From the NCBI GenBank assembly GCA_934131005.1, contig CAKOYV010000001.1:79868-143867 (forward strand): a stretch of 64,000 nucleotides of DNA, in the 5' to 3' direction. This stretch comes from an uncultured Bacilli bacterium. GTDB taxonomy: Bacteria > Bacillota_I > Bacilli_A > RF39 > UBA660. This document shows positions 1 to 35,602 of the stretch, in pieces. Made by a program: the position numbers and the translations under genes. Under the pieces are notes generated by a model, which made no database searches, was not told where the DNA came from, and worked only from the letters and a program-made list of their open reading frames with translations. The first letter of the stretch is position 1; every line of letters starts with the position of its first letter.

Positions 1-279
1 ATAATTACTAGAAATAGCCGCCTCTAAGCCTTTTTCTAACTGAGGTACTAAATACTCTTCATTATTTGAATGCTGATTAACAACCTCTAAAGATAAATCA
101 GCCTCTCCCGCAGTACCTGCTATACTATTATTACTAGCTGTTAAAGCATAATAAGCATATGTTCCACCAGTTACTAACAATGCATAACAAAATATTCCTA
201 TAATTATTAAGCTAACTCTCTTTAGTTTAAGAATTTTGACCCCCCCCCAATTAACTTTTGGTTTATAATTATTTATCAT
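1..279 (-). CDS. 5' fragment of a SipW-signal/TasA-like + DUF285 surface protein paralog (runs off the window edge); ATG at 279 is out of frame with the signal peptide because of the G9 tract
   Basis: Positions 1-300 are about 90% identical to 19380-19690, the 5' end of the 17691-19665 gene. Minus strand reads GAGGT-N6-ATG ATA AAT AAT TAT AAA CCA AAA GTT AAT T-G9-TC AAA..., followed by the hydrophobic signal peptide and a GGTYAYYALTASNN motif. Confidence 0.55.
   Translation of the reverse strand, partial: MINNYKPKVNWGGVKILKLKRVSLIIIGIFCYALLVTGGTYAYYALTASNNSIAGTAGEADLSLEVVNQHSNNEEYLVPQLEKGLEAAISSNY
240..248. repeat. Homopolymer C9 (G9 on coding strand) within the first codons of the paralog
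   Basis: Nine consecutive C read directly; unusual in a genome this AT-rich. Same length and context as the tract at 19625-19633. Confidence 0.9.
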
Positions 280-17690: not shown

Positions 17691-19665
17691 TCAAGATTTA
17701 ACAATAATATTACTACTACTAACTCCCGTAAAATTCTTATCAAGTATCCAATTCTTCTCAACTTCAGACTTAACATAAATAGTAGGTGTTTTTTTAGTTT
17801 TTATAAAATCATTATATGAATTAACTGTATTAAAATCAAAACCTGTTAAATCTAAAACTAAATTATCACTTTCATACCCTGTTCCACTAAACATATATGT
17901 TACATCAGTAACATTTGAAGTATCAAACTTATCATTCAATTTTAAAGAGAAATTTTCACTATTAAATCCTGTTTGGAAAAACATCCATCGCATTTTTGTG
18001 ACATTAGAAGTATCAAATTTATCACCTAAATCAAAAGTAAAATTACGACTAGAATAACCAACTTCCTTAAACATATACTCCATATTTGTAACATTAGAGG
18101 TATCAAATTTATCTCCCAAATCAAGTGTAAAATTAGAAGAATTTTTCCCAACATTTGCAAACATATTAGCCATATTTTTTACATTTGAAGTATTAAACTT
18201 ATCTCCTAAATTTAGTTGAAAAACCTTACTATTAGTACCACAGCCGCTAAACATCCCCCACATATCAGTGACATTAGATGTATCAAACTTACTTCCTAAA
18301 TCTAGAGAAAAAACTTCACTATTAGTACCACAACCATTAAAAAAATAAAACATATTTATCACATTATGTGTATCAAATTTATCTCCCAAATTAAGAGTAA
18401 AATTTTTAGCATTATTCCCTGTTCCAGCAAACATTCTCTCCATATTTGTTACACTAGATGTATCAAATCTATCACCCAAATCTAAAGTAAATACATCACT
18501 TACATTGCCAGTCGACCAAAACATCATATCCATATTTTTTACATTTTTAGTATTAAATTTATCACCTAAATCCAAAGTAAAAACAGAATCATTCTTACCA
18601 GTATTATAAAACATACCATTCATATAAATAACATTTCTTGTATCAAACTTATTACCTAGATTAAGAACAAAAACTGAACTACTACTTCCTAATTCTCTAA
18701 ACATATCTCTCATAGTTGTAGTTTGAATTGTATTTAAATTATCAAAAGATATACTATCTACCTTTGTCATATTTTGAAAAAATTTAGATAAATCTTTAGC
18801 ATATATTTCCTTCTTACTTCCTATATATAAATCATAATATCCATCACTACTATTATTATTAAGCCATGCTACTATACTATTATCCCCTAACTCTGATGCA
18901 TCCCACTGTACAACAGCATTACTTGTATCTATATAATCAACAAATGAAACATTCTTAATCTTTTCTCTATATTCATCACTTCTAAAAGTATCAGCACTTA
19001 TATTTTTCATATAATTAAACTCTCCAACCGTAGAAGTTACACCCGTTCCATTTGATGAAGAGAAATCAATCGTTGCATTATATTTTCCTGTATCTGGTTG
19101 ATTTTTATCTACTTCATCTATCCAAATAACCATATAATAAGTCTTTGATGCTCCCTTTCTCAAAGTTAAATCACTATCAAATCTAGCATCATCTAAACTA
19201 GCATAATGACTACTATACTTACCATAAGTATTTTTATCTTGAATAAGTCGCCATTTCAAGTTTGGCATTTTATCTATATTTCCAAAAGTTATAGTACCAT
19301 TTATTTTAACAGTAGCTGTCCCCGTATTAGTTATTTTAATAGAGTAAACTTGACAAACCGTATTATTATTATCATCAACACAATTATAATTACTAGAAAT
19401 GGCCGTTGCTAAGCCTTTTTCTAATTGAGGTACTAAATACTCTTCATTATTTGGATGTTGATTAACAACCTCTAAAGATAAATCAGCCTCTCCAGCAGTA
19501 CCGGCAATACTATTATTACTAGCTGTTAAGGCATAATAAGCATACGTTCCACCAGTTATCAACAACGCATAACAAAATATCCCTATAATTATTAAGCTAA
19601 CTCTCTTTAGTTTAAGACTTTTGACCCCCCCCCGAATTAACTTTTAGTTTATAATCATTCATCAT
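17691..19665 (-). CDS. Surface protein: SipW-type signal peptide + TasA-like domain + DUF285 repeats; annotated ATG (19665) is frameshifted relative to the body by the G9 tract
   Basis: About nine roughly 22-aa repeats LxLGDKFDTSNVTxMxxMF (DUF285-type). N-terminus GGTYAYYALTASNN...CVDDNNNTVCQVYSIKITN parallels the tandem paralogs at 22889-27800. GAGGT-N6-ATG ATG AAT GAT TAT AAA CTA AAA GTT AAT TC-G9-TCAAAAGTC; the signal-peptide frame begins after the tract. Confidence 0.6.
19625..19633. repeat. Homopolymer C9 (G9 on coding strand) in codons 11-14 of the DUF285 gene
   Basis: With G9 the ATG frame terminates after 17 codons (MMNDYKLKVNSGGGQKS*); G8 would fuse the ATG to the signal peptide and full ORF. 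Confidence 0.9.
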
Positions 19666-22888: not shown

Positions 22889-23623
22889 TTAATCAAATGT
22901 TGCTTTAATTTCATTACCCTCAGCCGTTACAAACGTAGCTTCTCCATTAAATACATGTTCCATTCCCTGCATATAATCTTGAGAAGTACCATCATCATAA
23001 ATCCATATCATAACATAAAAATCTCTACTAGTTGCCACTTCTAAACCACTCTTATCTGCACCACCAATTTGTTCATTAGAAACAAACAAACAATCATAAT
23101 CATCTTTATGATTAAAACCACCTTCATTACCATTTCTAGAACCAGTCTTAATCACTGCTCTCTCATCAAAACTATCATCCTTAAAATCGTCTGTCGTATA
23201 CTTAGTTGTAAATATTTCCTTATCTTCCGATACTTTTTTAGGATAAACTCTAGTAAATCTAGCCTCTACGCCATCCTTTGTCTCAAAAGTTATATAACCA
23301 TCAACAAAAAACACATCATCTTCGCCACCACTAACAGTAATTTTATATATTTGACATCCAGCATTGTTATTATCATCTAAACACAACTGTTCAGATGCAT
23401 GTGGGGCTTCACTATTTTTCATTGGAACTAAACCATTTATTATATCAGCCATTGTTACCCTTGAAATAGCCATACTAAAACTAGTTGTTTCACTTCGTCC
23501 TCTAACAGTATTTCCATCTTGACTACTAGCTGCAAAATAAGCAAATGTAGCCCCTATTATTATAATTGACAAAACCATACAACCAACAAACAAATAAAAC
23601 ATTTTCTTATTACTATTATTCAT
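22889..23623 (-). CDS. TasA/camelysin-like secreted protein with SipW-type signal peptide (divergent, short member)
   Basis: IIIGATFAYFAAS after a K-rich n-region and hydrophobic core; CLDDNNNAGCQIYKITV; C-terminal ...ATFD. Confidence 0.55.
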   Translation of the reverse strand: MNNSNKKMFYLFVGCMVLSIIIIGATFAYFAASSQDGNTVRGRSETTSFSMAISRVTMADIINGLVPMKNSEAPHASEQLCLDDNNNAGCQIYKITVSGGEDDVFFVDGYITFETKDGVEARFTRVYPKKVSEDKEIFTTKYTTDDFKDDSFDERAVIKTGSRNGNEGGFNHKDDYDCLFVSNEQIGGADKSGLEVATSRDFYVMIWIYDDGTSQDYMQGMEHVFNGEATFVTAEGNEIKATFD

Positions 23624-23644
23624 AGCATCACCCTATTCTAAAAA

Positions 23645-23673
23645 CATTATAACAAATAGGCACTAAAAAAACA
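23645..23673 (-). promoter_or_regulatory. Sigma-A-type promoter of the 22889-23623 gene
   Basis: TTGTTT-N17-TATAAT on the minus strand, followed by AGGGTGAT-ATG. Confidence 0.5.
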
Positions 23674-23705
23674 ATACAAGACTTAATTTTTGTATTGTTT
23701 TTAAA

Positions 23706-24665
23706 TTATTGACCAACTCTTTGATCAGATGGAACAGTAGTATATCCACCAAATGTAGCACTTACCTCTCCACCTTGTGCAGAATTAAATGTTACAGTAC
23801 CACTAAAGAAATTATTAGCAGCTGTACTACTACCAGTAGTATCAATAGTTTGATTAGTACCAGTCTCATGTAACCATACAACTATATATAGAATACTAAC
23901 ATTTTTATTAGTAGTATCTCCTTGTGGCTTCAAATATTGATTATATACTAAAGCATCTGCCATATCTTTAGCTCTATCATACTTACCACTAACATGCTTA
24001 CTAGTTCTAATATAATTAGTACTAATAATTTGTCTACTATTACCAGCAAAAGCAGCATTATCTGTAACAGTATTCAAATATCCACCAGCAGTTGAATAAA
24101 TTTTAGTCTTACTCATACCAGTAGCATCTGCTTTATTATCCAAATTAGCAAAAGTTTTTTCTGTATCAGCATTCAAAGCCGTCGTACCACCCGTAGAATA
24201 AGTATTACCAGTTTTAAATACTTGTGCCCATCTCATAGTAGTCTTAGCCGTTGTATCATCTGTTGAAGTACCTGTCTCAGTATTATTAGTCAAAGTAACA
24301 TAACCATCCAAGAACATACTAGCACTTGATTCGTTAGTTAAAGTTATTTTATATATCTGACAAACTGAGTTTCCATTATCATCAACACACGCTTTAGAAT
24401 GTTTAACTGCTTGTTCAACCATTGTATTAGACATTGGTATTAAACCACCATTAGTCTGATCAGTACTCTCATCTCTTTCAACTTTCAATCCAAAGTTAAT
24501 TGTAGCAGCATTACCCGTTAAAGTCGTTGTATTAGTTTGAGTTGCCATAAAGTATGCAAATGTTGCTCCTACAACTGCAACAACTAACGTAAGAATAGCT
24601 ACAACTATATATATTATTCCTTTTCTATCTCTTCCATTATCACTCATTGCTATCCTCCTTACCAT
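23706..24665 (-). CDS. TasA/camelysin-like secreted protein, SipW-type signal peptide (tandem paralog 2)
   Basis: VGATFAYFMATQTN; INFGLKVER; CVDDNGNSVCQIYKITLTN; conserved C-terminus LYIVVWLHETGTNQTI...TVTFNSAQGGEVSATFGGYTTVPSDQ. Confidence 0.6.
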   Translation of the reverse strand: MVRRIAMSDNGRDRKGIIYIVVAILTLVVAVVGATFAYFMATQTNTTTLTGNAATINFGLKVERDESTDQTNGGLIPMSNTMVEQAVKHSKACVDDNGNSVCQIYKITLTNESSASMFLDGYVTLTNNTETGTSTDDTTAKTTMRWAQVFKTGNTYSTGGTTALNADTEKTFANLDNKADATGMSKTKIYSTAGGYLNTVTDNAAFAGNSRQIISTNYIRTSKHVSGKYDRAKDMADALVYNQYLKPQGDTTNKNVSILYIVVWLHETGTNQTIDTTGSSTAANNFFSGTVTFNSAQGGEVSATFGGYTTVPSDQRVGQ

Positions 24666-24671
24666 GTATTA

Positions 24672-24719
24672 AGTATACCAAAAAAGCAAGAAAAAAACAA
24701 CACAAAATTTGCATTGTTT
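24672..24719 (-). promoter_or_regulatory. Terminator hairpin plus embedded promoter between paralogs (same layout at 25691-25738 and 26733-26761)
   Basis: Hairpin AAACAA(C/T)ACAAA-ATTT-G(C/T)ATTGTTT with a U-run on the minus strand. The 3' arm TTGTTT serves as the -35, then N17, then TATACT, then SD AAGGAGG-ATG. Confidence 0.5.
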
Positions 24720-24727
24720 AAATCAAT

Positions 24728-25663
24728 TTACTGTTGATCAGATGGAACAGTAGTATAACCACTAAATGTAGCACTTACCTCTCCACCTTGTGCTGAATTA
24801 AACGTTACAGTACCACTAAAGAAATTCTTAGCAGCCTCTTGATTACCAGTAGTATCAATAGTTTGATTAGTACCAGTCTCATGTAACCACACAACTATAT
24901 ATAATTCACTTTTATTCTTACCATCTTGGGTATTAGTAGATTTTAAATATTGATCATACACTAAAGCATCAGCTAAATCACTCGTTCTATCATACTTACT
25001 ATCCGGCTTATGTTGACTAGTCCTAATATAATTAGTACTAATTATATCTCTAGAATTACCAGCAAAATTAGCTGTATCTGTAACAGTATTTAAATAGCCA
25101 TCACCACTTGCATAAATCATATTCTTACTCATTCCTGTAAGATCACTCTTATTATCCAAAGAATTTATTGTCTTCTCACTATCAGCATTCAAAGTTGTTG
25201 TACCACCAGTAGAATAAGTATTACCACTTTTAAATACTTGTGCCCATCTCATAGTAGTACCAGCACTAGCTAAATCAGTAGATTTACCAGTCTCAGTTTT
25301 ACTACTCAAAGTAACGTAACCATCCAAGAACATACTAGCACTTGATTGATTAGTTAAAGTAATTTTATATATTTGACAAACTGAGTTTCCATTATCATCC
25401 TTACAAGGCGTTTCTGCTGTTACAGCTTTCTCAACCATTGTATTAGACATTGGAATTAAACCACCATTAGTCTGATCAGTAGTCTCAGCTCTCTCAACAT
25501 CTAATCCAAAATTAATTGATGCCGCATTACCTGTAATTGTATCATCATTAGTTTGTGTTGCTGTAAAATATGCAAAAGTAGCTCCTATTATAGCAACTAT
25601 TAATGTAGCAATTCCAATCACACCATAAAACAAACCTTTTCCGTTATAATGATTACCATCCAT
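24728..25663 (-). CDS. TasA/camelysin-like secreted protein (tandem paralog 3)
   Basis: Same conserved N- and C-terminal blocks; variable Ser/Thr-rich core. Confidence 0.6.
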   Translation of the reverse strand: MDGNHYNGKGLFYGVIGIATLIVAIIGATFAYFTATQTNDDTITGNAASINFGLDVERAETTDQTNGGLIPMSNTMVEKAVTAETPCKDDNGNSVCQIYKITLTNQSSASMFLDGYVTLSSKTETGKSTDLASAGTTMRWAQVFKSGNTYSTGGTTTLNADSEKTINSLDNKSDLTGMSKNMIYASGDGYLNTVTDTANFAGNSRDIISTNYIRTSQHKPDSKYDRTSDLADALVYDQYLKSTNTQDGKNKSELYIVVWLHETGTNQTIDTTGNQEAAKNFFSGTVTFNSAQGGEVSATFSGYTTVPSDQQ

Positions 25664-25746
25664 TCTCTCATCCTCCTCTATTATGAAATAAGTATATCAA
25701 AAAAGGAAGAAAAAAACAATACAAAATTTGTATTGTTTAAATTAAT

Positions 25747-26706
25747 TTATTGTTGGTCAGATGGAACAGTAGTGTATCCATTGAATGTAGCACTAACCTC
25801 TCCGCCTTGTGCAGAGTTAAATGTTACAGTACCAGTAAAGAAATTCTTGGCAGCTTCTGCATTACCAGTAGTATCAATAGTTTGGTTAGTTCCTGTCTCA
25901 TGTAACCATACAACTATATATAATTCATTTTTATTCTTACCATCTTGAGTACTAGCAGATTTTAAATATTGGTCATATACTAAAGCATCTGATAAATCTC
26001 CTGTTCTAGTATATTTATTATTTCCTTCTCCAGCTTTTACATGCTTACTAGTTCTAATATAGTTCTTATTTATAACTTCTCTTTTATTTCCAGCAAAAGT
26101 AGTATTTTCACTATCAGTAACTGCACTTAAATATTCTCCACCAGCTGAGTTATAAATATTTTTCTTATTCATACCAGTAGTATCAGTAGCATTATCAATA
26201 TTAGCAATTTGAACTTCTGTATCAGCATTCAAAGTTGTTGTACCACCAGTAGAATAAGTTTCACCACTTTTAAATACTTGTGCCCATCTCATAGTAGTAT
26301 TAGTAGCAGAAGTATCATCAGTAGAAGTTCCTGTAGCAGTTGCATTTGTCAAAGTTACATAACCATCCAAGAACATACTAGCAGTTGATTCATTAGTCAA
26401 AGTAATTTTATATATTTGACAAACTGAGTTTCCGTTATCATCCTTACAAGGAGTTGTAGCTGTTACAGCTTTCTCAACCATTGTATTAGACATTGGAATT
26501 AAACCACCATTAGTCTGGTCAGTAGTTTCAGCTCTTTCTACTTTTAAACCAAAGTTAATTGATGCAGCATTACCAGTAATAGTATTATCATTAGTTTGTG
26601 TAGCTGTAAAGTATGCAAAAGTAGCACCAATTATAGCAACAACTAATGTAGCAACACCAATTACACCATAAAATATTCCTCTTCCTTTCTTATTTTCATT
26701 ATTCAT
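25747..26706 (-). CDS. TasA/camelysin-like secreted protein (tandem paralog 4)
   Basis: Same blocks; variable core. Confidence 0.6.
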   Translation of the reverse strand: MNNENKKGRGIFYGVIGVATLVVAIIGATFAYFTATQTNDNTITGNAASINFGLKVERAETTDQTNGGLIPMSNTMVEKAVTATTPCKDDNGNSVCQIYKITLTNESTASMFLDGYVTLTNATATGTSTDDTSATNTTMRWAQVFKSGETYSTGGTTTLNADTEVQIANIDNATDTTGMNKKNIYNSAGGEYLSAVTDSENTTFAGNKREVINKNYIRTSKHVKAGEGNNKYTRTGDLSDALVYDQYLKSASTQDGKNKNELYIVVWLHETGTNQTIDTTGNAEAAKNFFTGTVTFNSAQGGEVSATFNGYTTVPSDQQ

Positions 26707-26852
26707 TATTATCTATCCTCCTTACTGTAACAAGTATAACAAATTTAATTTTAAAAGACAATATCTTTTTCACATTTTAAAAAAAAATTTATCTAAACAT
26801 CAAAAAAGAATACATATTTCTATGTACACTTTTTATCATAAACTAAATATTA

Positions 26853-27800
26853 TTATTGTGTTCTTGAAGTATCAGATGGAACAGTAGTATAACCACTAAA
26901 TGTAGCACTAACCTCTCCACCTTGCGCAGAGTTAAATGTTACAGTACCAGTGAAGAAGCCATCAGTTTGTCCACCTTCAGCAATTGTTTGGTTAGTACCA
27001 GTTTCATGTAACCATACAACTATATATAAATCATTAGTATTAGCATTATCAGCAGAACCCTTTGCTTTCAAATATTGATCATATACTAAAGCATCTGATA
27101 AATCTTTAGTTCTATCATATGAAGCAGCAGTATGTTTGCTAGTTCTAATATAGTTTTTATTGATTATAGTTCTATTATTACCAGCAAAAGCAGCCTCACC
27201 AGTAACAGCACTCAAATACCCATCACCAGTTCCATAAATCTTATCTTTACTCATACCAGTACCATCAGCTTTATTATCAATATTATCAATTTGAACTTCT
27301 GTATCAGCCTTTAATGTTGTTGTACCACCAGTAGAATACTTACTACCGTCATAAAATACTTGTGCCCATCTCATAGTAGTAGGAGCAGAAGTATCATCAG
27401 TAGACGTACCAGTTGCACCAGCAACTGTATCTTTTAAAGTTACATAACCATCCAAGAACATACTAGCAGTTGATTCATTAGTCAAAGTAATTTTATATAT
27501 TTGACAAACTGAGTTTCCGTTATCATCCTTACAAGGCGTTTCTGCTGTTACAGCTTTCTCAACCATTGTATTAGACATCGGAATTAAACCACCATTAGTC
27601 TGATCAGTAGTTTCTGCTCTAGCTACCTTTAAACCAAAGTTAATTGATGCAGCATTACCAGTAATTGTATCCTCATTAGTTTGTGTTGCAGTAAAGTATG
27701 CAAAAGTAGCACCAATAATAGCAACAACTAATGTAGCAACACCAATTACACCATAAAATACTCCTCTTCCTTTCATTTTATTATCATTACTCATTATCAT
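26853..27800 (-). CDS. TasA/camelysin-like secreted protein (tandem paralog 5, promoter-proximal)
   Basis: Same blocks; variable core. Confidence 0.6.
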   Translation of the reverse strand: MIMSNDNKMKGRGVFYGVIGVATLVVAIIGATFAYFTATQTNEDTITGNAASINFGLKVARAETTDQTNGGLIPMSNTMVEKAVTAETPCKDDNGNSVCQIYKITLTNESTASMFLDGYVTLKDTVAGATGTSTDDTSAPTTMRWAQVFYDGSKYSTGGTTTLKADTEVQIDNIDNKADGTGMSKDKIYGTGDGYLSAVTGEAAFAGNNRTIINKNYIRTSKHTAASYDRTKDLSDALVYDQYLKAKGSADNANTNDLYIVVWLHETGTNQTIAEGGQTDGFFTGTVTFNSAQGGEVSATFSGYTTVPSDTSRTQ

Positions 27801-27817
27801 CTATCCTCCTTACTATA

Positions 27818-27850
27818 CTAAGTATACCAAAACATTTTCTAAAAAGCAAC
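27818..27850 (-). promoter_or_regulatory. Promoter of the first tandem paralog
   Basis: TTGCTT-N17-TATACT on the minus strand, 20 nt upstream of AAGGAGGATAG-ATG. Confidence 0.5.
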
Positions 27851-27857
27851 ATCTTTT

Positions 27858-29174
27858 TTAACGTTTTTTGTTAACATAAAGATTATTTAGATTAGACGAA
27901 CTAATCAATTCATAATGAGAAGAAATATAAGAAACAATTTCCTTACTAGTCTGCCCTATTTCTTTACTAACTTCTTCATTATTAACAACAAATACACAAT
28001 TATTATTCAAACAATAATCAGAAATCTCTTTAATATATTTATAACTTCCCCCATAGCCCATATTACCATCATTAATCAAATCATATTTGGAAATCTTAAG
28101 TCCTAACTCTAACTTAGCCATATAAGCCCTAGAATCAAGCAAAAAAACACGATAACCAGAATATTCTTTATAAACATTCTTAACTAAAGAAAAATATTCC
28201 CTCATATAATTAGGCATCCTCTTATAAAGAAATTTACTATTACCATAATCATATATACCATCATATTGATTTGATTTAGGACTAATAACCGAAACAAACG
28301 ATCCCAAAAAGCCAAAAAAAACAATAATGCTAATTAAAAAAGCACCACAAAAATTAACTTTCTTATAAAGATAATAAATAACGGGACTAACCCCCAAAAC
28401 AAAATGTGAACTATCAACAATCGGAAAATCAATAATTTGAAATAATAATATATATATAAGTTGTCTATCTTTAGTCTTTATAAACATAAATAACAACCAA
28501 CAACAAATAAAAATCTCTACTACAGTTAAATATGAAAGCCCAACATTATTCTTACTACCAAAATCAAACAGTCCTAAAAAACAATAATCAATAAACTTAT
28601 ATAATCCTTCATAACTAACTAAATATAAGAGTAATACAAAAACACTAAGCATAATCAAAGCAAACATCCTCTTACGCCTCTTAGCATAATAAAGAAAAGG
28701 AATAGCCATCATAATAAATGTCTGTTTAGTTAAAAACATCAACACAATTATAATCCCAATAATTATCTCATTATTATCTCTATCTAAAAAATATAATAAC
28801 AAAAACATCAACAAAACTAAAAAAGTATTATAGCCATTATAAGGATAAATAAGCATAACCATATAAACAAAAATAGCCTTATACCCAATCATTTTATAAC
28901 AAACTAAAAAAATCATTAACAAAATTAAACTAACAAATATATGATACGCTATAAAATTATCACCAATCACTCCCATAAAAGCCCCCAAAATAATAGGAAA
29001 AAGTGGCGTAATAACCATATTAAAATCTAAATAAGGCCTAAGTCCATGCAATATATTATAACCAAATCCATAATTCCAAACACTATCTAAATTATAAGGT
29101 GCCAAATAATATAAATAAAAACAAGTACTTACTAGTAGTAAAAAAGAAAATATAATGCTTAAATATTTTCTCAT
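27858..29174 (-). CDS. Polytopic membrane protein (about 10 TM) with a roughly 130-aa C-terminal soluble domain; possible GT-C-type glycosyltransferase
   Basis: Hydrophobic profile; first loop YNLDSVWNYGFGYNILHGLRPYLDF; no decisive motif. Confidence 0.35.
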   Translation of the reverse strand: MRKYLSIIFSFLLLVSTCFYLYYLAPYNLDSVWNYGFGYNILHGLRPYLDFNMVITPLFPIILGAFMGVIGDNFIAYHIFVSLILLMIFLVCYKMIGYKAIFVYMVMLIYPYNGYNTFLVLLMFLLLYFLDRDNNEIIIGIIIVLMFLTKQTFIMMAIPFLYYAKRRKRMFALIMLSVFVLLLYLVSYEGLYKFIDYCFLGLFDFGSKNNVGLSYLTVVEIFICCWLLFMFIKTKDRQLIYILLFQIIDFPIVDSSHFVLGVSPVIYYLYKKVNFCGAFLISIIVFFGFLGSFVSVISPKSNQYDGIYDYGNSKFLYKRMPNYMREYFSLVKNVYKEYSGYRVFLLDSRAYMAKLELGLKISKYDLINDGNMGYGGSYKYIKEISDYCLNNNCVFVVNNEEVSKEIGQTSKEIVSYISSHYELISSSNLNNLYVNKKR

Positions 29175-32124: not shown

Positions 32125-32937
32125 TTATGCACCACTACCAACATTTTTTGAATCTTTACTATTACTATTCTTAAAAGAATCACTATTAGCAATATCTTGT
32201 AACTCATCTATCAATTTATTATAACCTGTTGCCTTATTATCATCAGAAAAATAAACCTCTCCCTTCTCTATCTCTAAAGAAGCATTATTAGCCTTCAAAT
32301 AATCAATAATTTCTCTCTCTTTACTAAAAAACTTATCCAAATCAACTGCTAATTTTTTCATATCACTCTTAATTTGCTTCAACTCTTGCAAATCTTTTTT
32401 ACTATACATAAGTTCCTTATATAAATCAAGATAATAATCATCATCCAACTTTTCCGAATCAACCAAAGACTTAATTTTCTTCTCATCACATAGCTCCGAA
32501 ATAGACTCCATTGCTTCCACAACCTTTGAAGATGCATCATCAATTAATTTATAACTTTTCTTAAATTCAGGCCTATCACTCTCTAAATTATCTCCCGATA
32601 ATATATTTGCCAAATCATCATCATCTAAATAATGATCAATTACCTTAACATCATCAGATAATTCCTTATAATATTTCTTAATAGCCTCCTCAATATAAGC
32701 ATAATCTCCCTTAGTTTTAATTTTTATATCATAATTATCACTACCCAAATCCTTATTATTAAGTTTAACAATCTCTTGCTTCAAAATAGCTTCCTGCTTC
32801 ATATCATCATAAACAAAATAACCAACACCTCCAATAATAATAAGTATAATCAACAATATAATTATAATAATTATCCTCTTCATAAAAACTCCATCTCCAT
32901 ATTCATTCCTTAACAATCTTTGCATTAATAAAATCAA
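32125..32937 (-). CDS. Membrane-anchored acidic coiled-coil protein, hypothetical
   Basis: One N-terminal TM, then a D/E/K-rich helical region. Confidence 0.3.
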   Translation of the reverse strand: MILLMQRLLRNEYGDGVFMKRIIIIIILLIILIIIGGVGYFVYDDMKQEAILKQEIVKLNNKDLGSDNYDIKIKTKGDYAYIEEAIKKYYKELSDDVKVIDHYLDDDDLANILSGDNLESDRPEFKKSYKLIDDASSKVVEAMESISELCDEKKIKSLVDSEKLDDDYYLDLYKELMYSKKDLQELKQIKSDMKKLAVDLDKFFSKEREIIDYLKANNASLEIEKGEVYFSDDNKATGYNKLIDELQDIANSDSFKNSNSKDSKNVGSGA

Positions 32938-33006: not shown

Positions 33007-33717
33007 TTACGAATTAAGTATCCAATCTATAATTAATTTTTTGATTTCATAATATTCACTTTCTTCAAATTGCATATTAGCTATACAAAATCGTTTAGAT
33101 GCAATATGGGAACAAAACATACATTCATATAAATCAAAACAATCTTGAATAAATAAAGAATTACTTACTTTATTAGAACAAATAACATTATAACTATTAC
33201 TACAATTTTTGGAATCATCACATCTTATACAAAAATTACACCCACCCGATCTTTGAGAAGCCAATAAAAATTCACTCTTACCACAAGAATCACAGTAAAT
33301 CATATTTCTAGAATCACTACACCCCGTACTTCTATAAATATTTTCACATCTATAAATAGTATCACTCCCAAAAACATCAATAGAATCATAAACTCTCTCA
33401 GTTGTAGTTAAATTAATAGTATTCCATATATCAATTAATTCTTGCAAATTAACTATTTTCCTCTTAGTAAGCATCCAACCACTCTCCCTATCTCTCTTTT
33501 CCATATTCTTATTTGTTATAAATTTACCACTATTAATAGAGTCTGCCCAAGTTATTTCATTTGTAACCGAATCATTTACCTGTTTAGGTAATTTAACATC
33601 AAAAGCAAATTTTTCTAACAAAATATCCATAAAAAAATTATTTTCTCTATCAAATACACTTTCAAATATTTTATTAACAATCAATAACGCCTTAGTACCA
33701 TCCATTTTATCACACAC
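33007..33717 (-). CDS. Cys-rich protein (about 20 Cys in the C-terminal 110 aa), hypothetical partner of the ATPase
   Basis: Start overlaps the ATPase stop by 8 nt (33710-33717); repeated C-x(2-4)-C / CxxS motifs. Confidence 0.35.
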   Translation of the reverse strand: MCDKMDGTKALLIVNKIFESVFDRENNFFMDILLEKFAFDVKLPKQVNDSVTNEITWADSINSGKFITNKNMEKRDRESGWMLTKRKIVNLQELIDIWNTINLTTTERVYDSIDVFGSDTIYRCENIYRSTGCSDSRNMIYCDSCGKSEFLLASQRSGGCNFCIRCDDSKNCSNSYNVICSNKVSNSLFIQDCFDLYECMFCSHIASKRFCIANMQFEESEYYEIKKLIIDWILNS

Positions 33718-35602
33718 CCTTTTTACTTGTTGAATTAGCTATCAAAATATCTTTTAAACTTACATTACCATTTAAATTAAAATTAGTTTTAGATTTATTT
33801 AAATTATCCTTATTAACTGTATTAGTACTCTTACTTGATACCATTCTCTTTATTCTAGGAATACTCGTATAATTTAATGTTCTTCCCTTAAATGCTGGTA
33901 ATAATACACCATTAGACTCTATTCTAGCAATACATTCCCTATTATTAAGCTCTGTTAATAATTTAATTTTTCTCTCTCTAGAATCATCTAATGGTATTTT
34001 CATATTAAAATTATCTACTAATATATTAGCATCTAACTTTGATACTCTAAATATAAAATAATTAATAACATTAGCAAATATAGAATTTCTTAATTCATCA
34101 GATATTTGATTAAAATATTGACCCGCTAATATTAAAGATAAATTATACTTTCTTGCCTCTGATAAATATCTAGACAAAATTGGATTTTCAACGACCGCAA
34201 CCTCATCAATAATAAAGATAATATGCTCACCTATTCCTCGTCTTTTCATTATAGTTAATAACTGTTGCATAATTAACCCTGATATCGTTTTAGTTACTTT
34301 ATCCCCCAACTTTGTTCTATCTAGTGAGAATAAAGTCAAAAAATTATCACAAATAGTATCTTTTAAATTTTTACTATTTTTATTTGAATTAAATACAGGT
34401 ATCATTTCCATCTCATCAATAAAACCTATAATTGGAGATATTGCTTCTCCATAAGCCTTAGTTTTTAAATCATTAAAATCAGATAAAAAAAAGTCTATTA
34501 CACTAATAGGTAAATTACATTTTAATTCCTTTATTAAGCTATTCCTATATTCCAAATCTAATATAAGTCTTCTTAAATTTTTAAAATTAAACTCCCCATA
34601 AGTCAATAGCAAATGTATAGAATGTCTTAAAACTCTCTCTAATTTAGAATTATATTGATAAGCAATTAATGATTTTAATAGCTCTAACAAAAGTTCTGTT
34701 GATGCAACAATATCACTACTATCATTAATAAACAAATCTATACTATCTAAATCACTTTTAAAATCAATTATTTTTCCAATACCACCTATATCATCTTCAA
34801 GAGAAGCATGAGGATCTATTACTACAACTTTATACCTTTCTCTAAGCTCTTCGCATTTATTAATATTATTAATTAATAAGCTTATAAATTTAGATTTACC
34901 ACATCCTGAAGACCCCATTATAATAGAATGCTTAGCAAAACTAAAATTATTTTGTTTTAAATAAAAATCTTCCTGTAAATAAGGAAATGTATCAACTGAT
35001 AATAAAGCATTATTAGAATCATTAGTTAATAAATATAATATTTTACTTACATCTAAATATTTAGGAAAACTCTTATAAAAGTATCTTTTATTTCCTTCAA
35101 AATCTACTGATAATATACTAGTCGCAACAGCAAATATAGCATTATACCTCTTTATTACCCCATCTTTATTAAGGTAAAAACATATTTTAGACTTAATCTT
35201 ATCTTCATACAATTTCCAAAAACTAATTTCTAAATATTCTAAAGTACCTTTATTTCTAACTTCATTATAATTTATTAAATCTATAATACTACTCCCAACT
35301 TTAATTAATGAAAAGAACGTATATTTTGGATTATGAACCTCTACTAACTTTCCTTCCTTTAACAAAAAAGAATTCAAATTATTTACCGTAGCAGGCAAAT
35401 TACATCTAGTTTTAATAAAATATCTTATTTGATTTCTATCATTAGTAATAATTATTTTCCATCCCTTTAAAATACCATTATAATCTGATATTGTCTTAAT
35501 TAATTCTAACCATTCTTCTTTTGTAACAAATTTTTTAGTTAGATATATTTCTGAAGTTACCCCATAACAAATCGCCTCACAAAAAGTATACCAAAATGGC
35601 AA
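33710..35602 (-). CDS. HerA/FtsK-superfamily (DUF87-like) P-loop ATPase
   Basis: Walker A IMGSSGCGKSKF followed by VVIDPHASLED (HerA-like iDPHGEY), Walker B IIFIIDEVAVV, LILAGQ sensor-like motif; 230-aa N-terminal domain without TM. Confidence 0.5.
   Translation of the reverse strand: MPFWYTFCEAICYGVTSEIYLTKKFVTKEEWLELIKTISDYNGILKGWKIIITNDRNQIRYFIKTRCNLPATVNNLNSFLLKEGKLVEVHNPKYTFFSLIKVGSSIIDLINYNEVRNKGTLEYLEISFWKLYEDKIKSKICFYLNKDGVIKRYNAIFAVATSILSVDFEGNKRYFYKSFPKYLDVSKILYLLTNDSNNALLSVDTFPYLQEDFYLKQNNFSFAKHSIIMGSSGCGKSKFISLLINNINKCEELRERYKVVVIDPHASLEDDIGGIGKIIDFKSDLDSIDLFINDSSDIVASTELLLELLKSLIAYQYNSKLERVLRHSIHLLLTYGEFNFKNLRRLILDLEYRNSLIKELKCNLPISVIDFFLSDFNDLKTKAYGEAISPIIGFIDEMEMIPVFNSNKNSKNLKDTICDNFLTLFSLDRTKLGDKVTKTISGLIMQQLLTIMKRRGIGEHIIFIIDEVAVVENPILSRYLSEARKYNLSLILAGQYFNQISDELRNSIFANVINYFIFRVSKLDANILVDNFNMKIPLDDSRERKIKLLTELNNRECIARIESNGVLLPAFKGRTLNYTSIPRIKRMVSSKSTNTVNKDNLNKSKTNFNLNGNVSLKDILIANSTSKKGV

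Follow-up and report, generated by a model that had tools for sequence, protein, structure and literature searches.

A tandem array of SipW-type secreted proteins in an uncultured gut Bacilli bacterium and its relation to TasA-like fibre systems

What do five similar, head-to-tail genes for secreted proteins contribute to the surface of an uncultured gut Bacilli bacterium, and do their products belong to the TasA proteins? This question is raised by a 64-kb stretch of contig CAKOYV010000001.1 (assembly GCA_934131005.1), called the window in the following; all coordinates refer to it unless a locus identifier (L...) precedes them. A sequence-only reading of the window had described the five genes as TasA/camelysin-like, with SipW-type signal peptides, conserved ends and a variable Ser/Thr-rich core. 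The explanation that we favour, and that we consider somewhat probable rather than secure, is that the array encodes major and minor subunits, processed by SipW and possibly glycosylated, of a fibre in the style of TasA, Tafi or AbpX. The proteins would work like TasA in export and probably in assembly, yet by test they stand outside the TasA family. The surface biology of the uncultured low-GC gut Bacilli, deposited as metagenome-assembled genomes (MAGs) labelled 'Bacilli' or 'Tenericutes', is almost uncharacterised, and the locus points to a large unnamed family that probably follows the SipW/DUF5305 route already described for TasA, Tafi and AbpX fibres.

Array anatomy, protein family and signal peptidase

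The anatomy of the array is clear. Five consecutive open reading frames (ORFs) lie on the minus strand at 22889-27800, exactly where the sequence-only reading had placed them, in a window of ~28% G+C whose GC skew is strongly negative all along and whose minus strand holds most genes. Four are close long paralogues (311-319 aa, 70-79% mutual identity), the fifth is a distant short one (244 aa, 32%), and the DNA repeats across the array with a period of 1.0-1.1 kb (Table 1). Each of the five is preceded by a promoter-like site of its own (TTGnnT, 17 nt, extended TG-TATACT; TTGCTT-17-TATACT in gene 1) and by a strong AAGGAGG ribosome-binding site, and a simple scan found no intrinsic terminators between the five genes. 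At the N-terminus of all five proteins, a short polar segment leads into one hydrophobic helix which ends in G-A-T-F-A-Y-F. In gene 1, for instance, this single N-terminal helix and the motif GATFA/YF (the slash marks the cleavage site) precede a mature part of ~30 kDa with an isoelectric point (pI) of 4.6; the mature proteins are acidic throughout (pI 4.4-5.4).

The N- and C-terminal blocks that had been read as common to all five genes are indeed present in the four long ones, but gene 5 keeps only degenerate motifs, i.e., GATFAYF, C.DDN.N..CQIYKIT, W...GT.Q and ATF at the C-terminus. The description of the core as Ser/Thr-rich is roughly right: Ser and Thr make up 24-26% of the entire mature long proteins, with a local peak of 13 in 30 residues.

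Such an array is far beyond chance, because a sequence search of a 90%-clustered collection found 1,944 homologues of the family at E<=1e-3; a profile search of a 50%-clustered library gave 1,461 representatives. None of the 120 best homologues listed carries a Pfam domain, and the source names them only 'hypothetical protein'. The family is large and has neither a Pfam model nor a name. Its members fall into two size classes, ~200-260 aa (gene 5-like) and ~310-420 aa (like genes 1-4), and the central insertion makes the difference. Among species-representative genomes, the hosts are MAGs that bear the labels Bacilli, Tenericutes or Erysipelotrichaceae and come from the guts of humans, ruminants, rabbits and other animals; some of these records are evidently mis-binned. 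A locus holds 1-14 family copies, often 3-7, and a genome often has several loci.

Conservation within the family is highest in the element C-x-D-D-N-G-N-x-V-C-Q-[IV]-Y-K-I-T at residues 87-96 (26419-26448 in gene 2). Both Cys residues of its C-x-D-D-N-G-N-x-V-C part are invariant in the long and short size classes; the element could be a disulphide-closed, possibly Ca-binding, loop before a core strand.

Concerning the signal peptide, the motif itself is very strongly conserved. Of 217 family ORFs, 174 carry GATFAYF or a closely similar sequence, and none of the other ORFs within 1.26 Mb of related loci has it. Position P1' of the 174 motif ORFs is Tyr (164) or Phe (10), and P2' is aromatic in all of them (Phe 157, Tyr 17). 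Peptidases of the LepB type are reported to cleave sites with an aromatic P2' poorly, while SipW handles the P2' Phe of TasA (PMC10269814). In an hhalign comparison, GATFA/YF stands in register with the TasA cleavage site GGTWA/AF. The SipW-signal model TIGR04088 scores four of the five window proteins at 14.3-18.6 bits, below its 19-bit cut-off. Across the family it matches 52 of 68 members at E<=0.1 (best 7.5e-5) and is the only model that recurs.

A gene for a SipW-type peptidase is not encoded within the 64-kb window. The neighbours of family genes were clustered in 74 species-representative loci. A SipW gene was found by this clustering at most 10 kb from family genes in eight of the 74 loci; it follows directly after a family array in four loci, and a DUF5305 gene comes next in four. 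The relatives' SipW scores 103.8 bits with TIGR02228 (cut-off 51.85) and shows the boxes T-G-S-M-x-P, H-R and K-G-D-N.

The left edge of the window could be extended via the public contig L081, whose sequence shares 98.2% identity with the window along 11.3 kb. It encodes a polytopic SipW-type peptidase ~4.0-5.1 kb past this edge. Because this strain of the same species carries such a gene ~4 kb beyond the window, the lack of sipW in the genome that would have spoken against a SipW-type signal is not what we observe. The peptidase is directly followed by a DUF5305 gene, and the surrounding block is probably the module that supplies the window's array with processing and tip functions: a dedicated signal peptidase I (SPase I), a DUF5305 protein, and subunit-like and tip-like genes occur together here. 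Taking the motif, the TIGR04088 scores just below the cut-off and the peptidase gene in the 98.2%-identical strain together, the SipW-type signal proposed from sequence is supported, and our confidence in the link between this family and SipW is high.

Mature domain, constraint and locus plan

The assignment of the mature proteins to TasA/camelysin, in contrast to that of their signal peptides, did not stand at the level of sequence. The profile PF12389 (Peptidase_M73) matches none of the five proteins at E<=1, and scans with Pfam and NCBIfam, including the TasA/camelysin, BsaA and other SipW-substrate models, returned the signal model only. We rebuilt a TasA-family alignment from 36 sequences, all carrying PF12389, and compared it by hhalign with profiles of the long and the short class. 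Homology of the mature domain to TasA was not found: hhalign aligns only ~51-55 residues (within ~6-60), with probabilities of 3.2% and 15.5%, and the aligned part comprises the signal peptide and the first mature strand. Since there is no PF12389 match and the hhalign alignment is limited to signal and first strand, the array cannot be placed in the TasA family by sequence.

Other known families were considered as well. Aligned with AbpX of P. abyssi, the family profile reaches an hhalign probability of 0.2%. Against the AbpX pattern, mature position 2 fits (Phe), but position 4 is Ala in 156 of 174 cases instead of an acidic residue; for AbpX a pI of ~4 is expected. Type IV pilins and pseudopilins were rejected on direct reading, as no G/F-T-L-x-E prepilin-peptidase site is present and the conserved motif terminates the hydrophobic helix instead of opening it. 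The PDB was searched with profiles of both size classes, which gave no relevant match.

An AlphaFold2 (AF2) model of gene 2 shows a beta-sandwich with a mean predicted local distance difference test (pLDDT) score of 77.7 and a predicted template modelling (TM) score of 0.76. Foldseek retrieved nothing below E=1e-3 with this model; the TasA fibre 8aur_A is ranked fourth (E=4.5e-3, TM score 0.25/0.32). The predicted fold is a generic beta-sandwich, Ig-like as in many adhesins. One part of the model deserves attention with regard to assembly. The mature N-terminal segment (residues 32-50) is conserved in the family, with Y32, A35 and G45 invariant, and residues 30-46 are modelled unpacked with pLDDT<50 in the monomer. 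A conserved but unpacked N-terminus is indirect evidence, as far as the model goes, for polymerisation by donor strands.

The centre of the long genes is less constrained than their ends. In 30-codon windows, the proportion of nonsynonymous differences (pN) among the four paralogues amounts to 0.05-0.11 at either end and to 0.15-0.27 in the middle, in good agreement with the variable core of the sequence-only reading; divergence is not uniform along the alignment. Windowed Nei-Gojobori estimates of synonymous divergence (dS) are similar along the gene (0.25-0.71), while the ratio of nonsynonymous to synonymous divergence (omega) ranges over 0.13-0.27 in the end regions and 0.4-0.7 in the central region, without exceeding 1 anywhere. 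The even dS together with the low omega of the ends shows that the conserved ends reflect purifying selection and not recent gene conversion.

A comparison of strains leads to the same picture. Two public contigs are identical to the window, and two further strains, 95-99% identical, have the five genes in the same order with one-to-one orthology, which holds in L001, L002, L077 and L079. Compared with L077, omega is ~0.5 in the centre and ~0.15 at the ends; compared with the closer strain L079, there are too few changes to resolve the gene ends. In the centre of gene 2, omega between strains is ~1, from few changes. Gene conversion or cassette exchange is ruled out by the even dS, by a longest near-identical tract of 87 nt at 90-95%, and by the one-to-one orthology. 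Hence, of the diversifying selection or cassette-like recombination suggested earlier, the faster centre is confirmed and the shuffling of cassettes is not, given the stable order and even dS. Positive selection was not demonstrated by the windowed Nei-Gojobori counts, neither among paralogues nor among strains; some central sites are possibly subject to it.

Gene 5 differs from the other four in its history. The plan of the locus is conserved across genera and comprises an upstream membrane protein, a varying number of long subunits and one short subunit; a convergent radical-SAM gene usually comes next. All nine arrays that adjoin this gene end with a short family gene preceded by a long one. 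Orthologues of gene 5 (43-56% identity) occupy that same last position in at least 13 other genomes, and gene 5 is under the strongest constraint of the array (omega ~0.1). It is a candidate for a minor, nucleator or anchor subunit. Long genes elsewhere are at most 54% identical to genes 1-4; as the latter share 70-79% with each other, their fourfold duplication is specific to this lineage.

The membrane protein directly upstream of the array has a GT-C glycosyltransferase fold. Its AF2 model reaches a pLDDT of 93, PMT_2 matches 10 of 58 homologues, and the acidic residue that is conserved in the first outside loop of such enzymes is present as an invariant Asp. Wherever a species-representative locus contains the GT-C gene, this gene is located directly upstream of a family gene (9/9). 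The enzyme is a candidate for acting on the subunits or on the wall. That it may glycosylate the Ser/Thr-rich insertion is a reasonable idea in which we have low confidence.

Fibre subunits or other surface proteins

Implementing these observations, the following mechanism may be proposed. The precursors would be exported via Sec, and the single N-terminal hydrophobic helix with the nearly invariant G-A-T-F-A/Y-F at its end would be cut after Ala by the archaeal/ER-type (endoplasmic reticulum; SipW-type) signal peptidase I encoded elsewhere beside DUF5305, leaving Tyr-Phe as the new N-terminus. The released acidic ~30-kDa beta-sandwich proteins would then build an extracellular fibre or matrix, in which the conserved, unpacked N-terminal segment of ~20 residues may serve as donor strand, as in TasA, Tafi and AbpX. 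In this scheme, genes 1-4 would be copies of the major subunit that arose by duplication within this lineage, with the central insertion of ~90-120 residues as an exposed and fast-evolving face, and gene 5 would be an old, separately conserved minor subunit. The upstream GT-C enzyme may glycosylate the Ser/Thr-rich insertion. The analysis shows the gene anatomy, the family, the signal motif, the presence of peptidase and DUF5305 genes in the same species, the GT-C fold and the pattern of constraint; cleavage by SipW, strand donation, glycosylation and the division into major and minor roles are inferred from these. We have moderate confidence that the array proteins form fibres.

Fibres of the TasA, Tafi and AbpX types polymerise by donor-strand complementation. 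With TasA/CalY, SipW and TapA of Bacillus the array shares a signal ending in G-x-T-[FW]-A with an aromatic P2', a dedicated archaeal-type SPase I, the putative pairing of a major with a distinct minor subunit, and an acidic, beta-rich mature protein. Unlike TasA, the mature domain has no detectable sequence homology to it, the peptidase is encoded outside the operon of the array, the putative major subunit exists as four paralogues that each carry a large Ser/Thr-rich insertion, and a GT-C enzyme is encoded upstream; the host is an uncultured low-GC gut Bacilli bacterium.

The resemblance to Tafi (TafA/TafE, TafD, TafG) and AbpX lies in the pair of SPase I and DUF5305, the long polytopic peptidase of ~9-10 helices, several putative major and minor subunit genes, the fusion of subunit-like domains to an adhesin-like 'tip', and two-component regulators near the loci of relatives, where such genes occur in 12 related loci. 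In the haloarchaeal Tafi system, TafD is the peptidase and TafG the DUF5305 protein, and deletion of tafD leaves TafA unprocessed and the cells without fimbriae (PMC11821415, PMC12337348). Loci of the AbpX type in archaea and Bacillota encode a ten-helix SPase I, minor subunits, tip proteins, anchors and two-component regulators (bioRxiv 10.64898/2026.01.04.697558). The array departs from both in that the family has no AbpX match and carries Ala instead of an acidic residue at mature position 4, in that export is by Sec and not by the twin-arginine pathway (Tat), and in that the subunit array lies apart from the peptidase module.

The same genes may be explained without polymerisation. The products could be SipW-processed or signal-anchored surface or secreted proteins forming a variable coat, an adhesin or a decoy layer, with the paralogues giving antigenic breadth against host immunity or phages. 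The Ig-like sandwich is generic and common among adhesins, the centre evolves faster than the ends, the N-terminal helix passes through the motif in the AF2 model, and other family domains occur as fusions with DUF285 repeats, behind G tracts that look phase-variable. Two such fusions are located in the window. The two G9 tracts, at 240-248 and 19625-19633, are the only G/C homopolymers of at least 7 nt in the 64 kb, and both stand on the coding strand, within the region of each paralogous fusion that encodes the signal peptide. One gene is in frame and the other frameshifted; the ORF of the latter opens only at 19565 because its tract breaks the frame. The in-frame fusion at the left window edge is truncated in L081 (503 aa) and has its full length in L082 (536 aa). 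The pattern looks like phase variation by strand slippage in family members with an adhesin tip, and the fusion at 17691..19665 is itself a candidate for an adhesin-like 'tip', a part also known from Tafi and AbpX. What speaks against a coat is the strictly conserved mature N-terminus, the peptidase and DUF5305 module and the plan of major plus minor subunits, all hallmarks of fibres built by strand donation, as well as the fact that all five genes are intact and stable in three strains. We judge the coat unlikely, if still worth serious attention. It is highly doubtful that the proteins are true but very divergent TasA/camelysin (PF12389) members, as had been proposed earlier. Signal peptide and first mature strand are in register with TasA, its fibre ranks fourth in Foldseek, and on direct reading Y-K-I-T-L-T-N-x-S resembles the strand and turn F-x-F-x-N-x-G-S of TasA; these points are set against the lack of a PF12389 match and of mature-domain homology in the hhalign comparison.

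A different view arises from the neighbourhood of relatives. In 29 of the 74 loci, an atypical F-type ATPase cluster lies directly upstream of short family arrays and in the same direction, often with SipW next. It encodes in this order a c-like (81 aa), a b-like (255 aa), an alpha, a beta, an epsilon-like (83 aa), a 5-helix (177 aa) and a gamma-like subunit (262 aa); the cluster showed neither an a nor a delta subunit, and the alpha-like subunit stays below every NCBIfam cut-off. All 19 distinct c-like subunits lack the acidic residue of helix 2 that binds the coupling ion. One may thus imagine that the family members are pilin-like substrates of an ATP-driven machine, with the atypical F-type or the HerA-like ATPases as motor in place of self-assembly. 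Besides the cluster and its missing ion-binding carboxylate, the HerA-like ATPase beside SipW in the window's species is in favour of this. However, no ATPase adjoins the window array, L072 has an array and SipW with no ATPase between the same flanking genes, and the family lacks a prepilin-peptidase motif. Moreover, the beta subunits are 66-99% identical, so that the linkage of array and ATPase may be synteny inherited in one clade. To our knowledge, fibres of the SipW type need no ATPase. An ATP-driven assembly machine is therefore hardly probable.

A bolder version would have the family form, in this clade of Mollicutes-related gut Bacilli, a surface appendage that is assembled, extruded or moved by an undescribed atypical F-type rotary ATPase encoded with short paralogues and SipW, the long subunits of the window being its abundant and variable shaft. 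We consider this rather improbable. If true, it would be the third independent recruitment of an F1-like motor to a surface machine, after the gliding motor of Mycoplasma mobile and MIB-MIP, and the first F1-like motor tied to SipW-processed pilin-like proteins. The off-window relatives share with the F1-like X0 ATPases of Mycoplasma an extra atypical F-type cluster beside surface-protein genes in Mollicutes-related bacteria. They differ from these (Type 2, gliding motor; Type 3, with MIB-MIP) in subunit set and gene order, no mycoplasma-specific NCBIfam model was passed, and the window itself has no such cluster. A search within one library of papers returned nothing that links SipW or TasA with F1-like ATPases, RF39, Erysipelotrichales or Mollicutes.

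If the proteins form fibres, these are probably a main matrix or adhesion structure of these gut bacteria, and the cross-domain TasA-type fibre system would gain a new subunit family. Features of its own are the large variable insertion, the linked GT-C glycosyltransferase and the apparently phase-variable adhesin fusions. The locus offers a concrete set of genes for expression and imaging.

Further genes around the array

The features of the window, its extension and the ATPase loci are collected in Table 1.

Table 1. Positions of the array genes, of further features in the window and of features in related loci
Feature	Coordinates	Strand	Remarks
Long subunit gene 1	26853..27794	-	313 aa from MSNDNK (start used by gene callers); ORF from 27800 = 315 aa
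Long subunit gene 2	25747..26706	-	319 aa; source of structure model
Long subunit gene 3	24728..25663	-	311 aa; identical to P0007, present on 72 public contigs
Long subunit gene 4	23706..24647	-	313 aa from MSDNGR; ORF from 24665 = 319 aa
Short subunit gene 5	22889..23623	-	244 aa; without central insertion; 32% identical to genes 1-4
GT-C fold membrane glycosyltransferase	27858..29174	-	438 aa; directly upstream of array, co-directional; begins 2 bp past tmk
Family domain fused to DUF285 repeats	17691..19665	-	frame broken by G9 tract 19625-19633 in signal-peptide coding part
Second family::DUF285 fusion, 5' end	1..279, runs off window	-	in frame through G9 tract 240-248
HerA/DUF87-like ATPase of the window	33710-35602		630 aa; 5 kb upstream of array
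ORFs after the window HerA/DUF87-like ATPase	33007-33717; 32125-32937		no family match
Block past the left window edge	L081:11134-20915		~0-10 kb past left edge; family::DUF285, HerA-like ATPase, 217-aa protein, peptidase, DUF5305, giant protein
HerA/DUF87-like ATPase of L081			589 aa; between family::DUF285 and 217-aa protein
Secreted protein of L081			217 aa; signal G-F-S-A-F-S, similar to the family's; precedes peptidase
SipW-type peptidase of L081	L081:15325-16455		376 aa, polytopic; TIGR02228 81.9 bits vs 51.85
DUF5305 protein of L081			388 aa, two membrane helices; PF17231 44.9 bits vs 29; directly after peptidase
Giant repeat protein of L081			>2,275 aa, Flg_new repeats; N-terminus LTFAYYV
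Atypical F-type ATPase cluster	L035:4314-9580; L048:3693-8980; L055:3579-9000; L009:240-5402; + 25 more		outside window

The 217-aa secreted protein encoded before the peptidase was considered as a possible TasA and rejected. It shows just a faint 'PG..x..N.G' motif, and hhalign gives a probability of 0.6%. The HerA/DUF87-like ATPase upstream of the array is the second of its kind, next to the one of L081. In seven loci which have no GT-C gene at that position, a ~380-aa protein with a Pro/Thr/Gln-rich linker and a C-terminal membrane helix is encoded before the array; these include L009, L011, L012, L017, L003 and L032, where it lies just upstream of long subunit arrays. This protein could be an alternative anchor or accessory protein.

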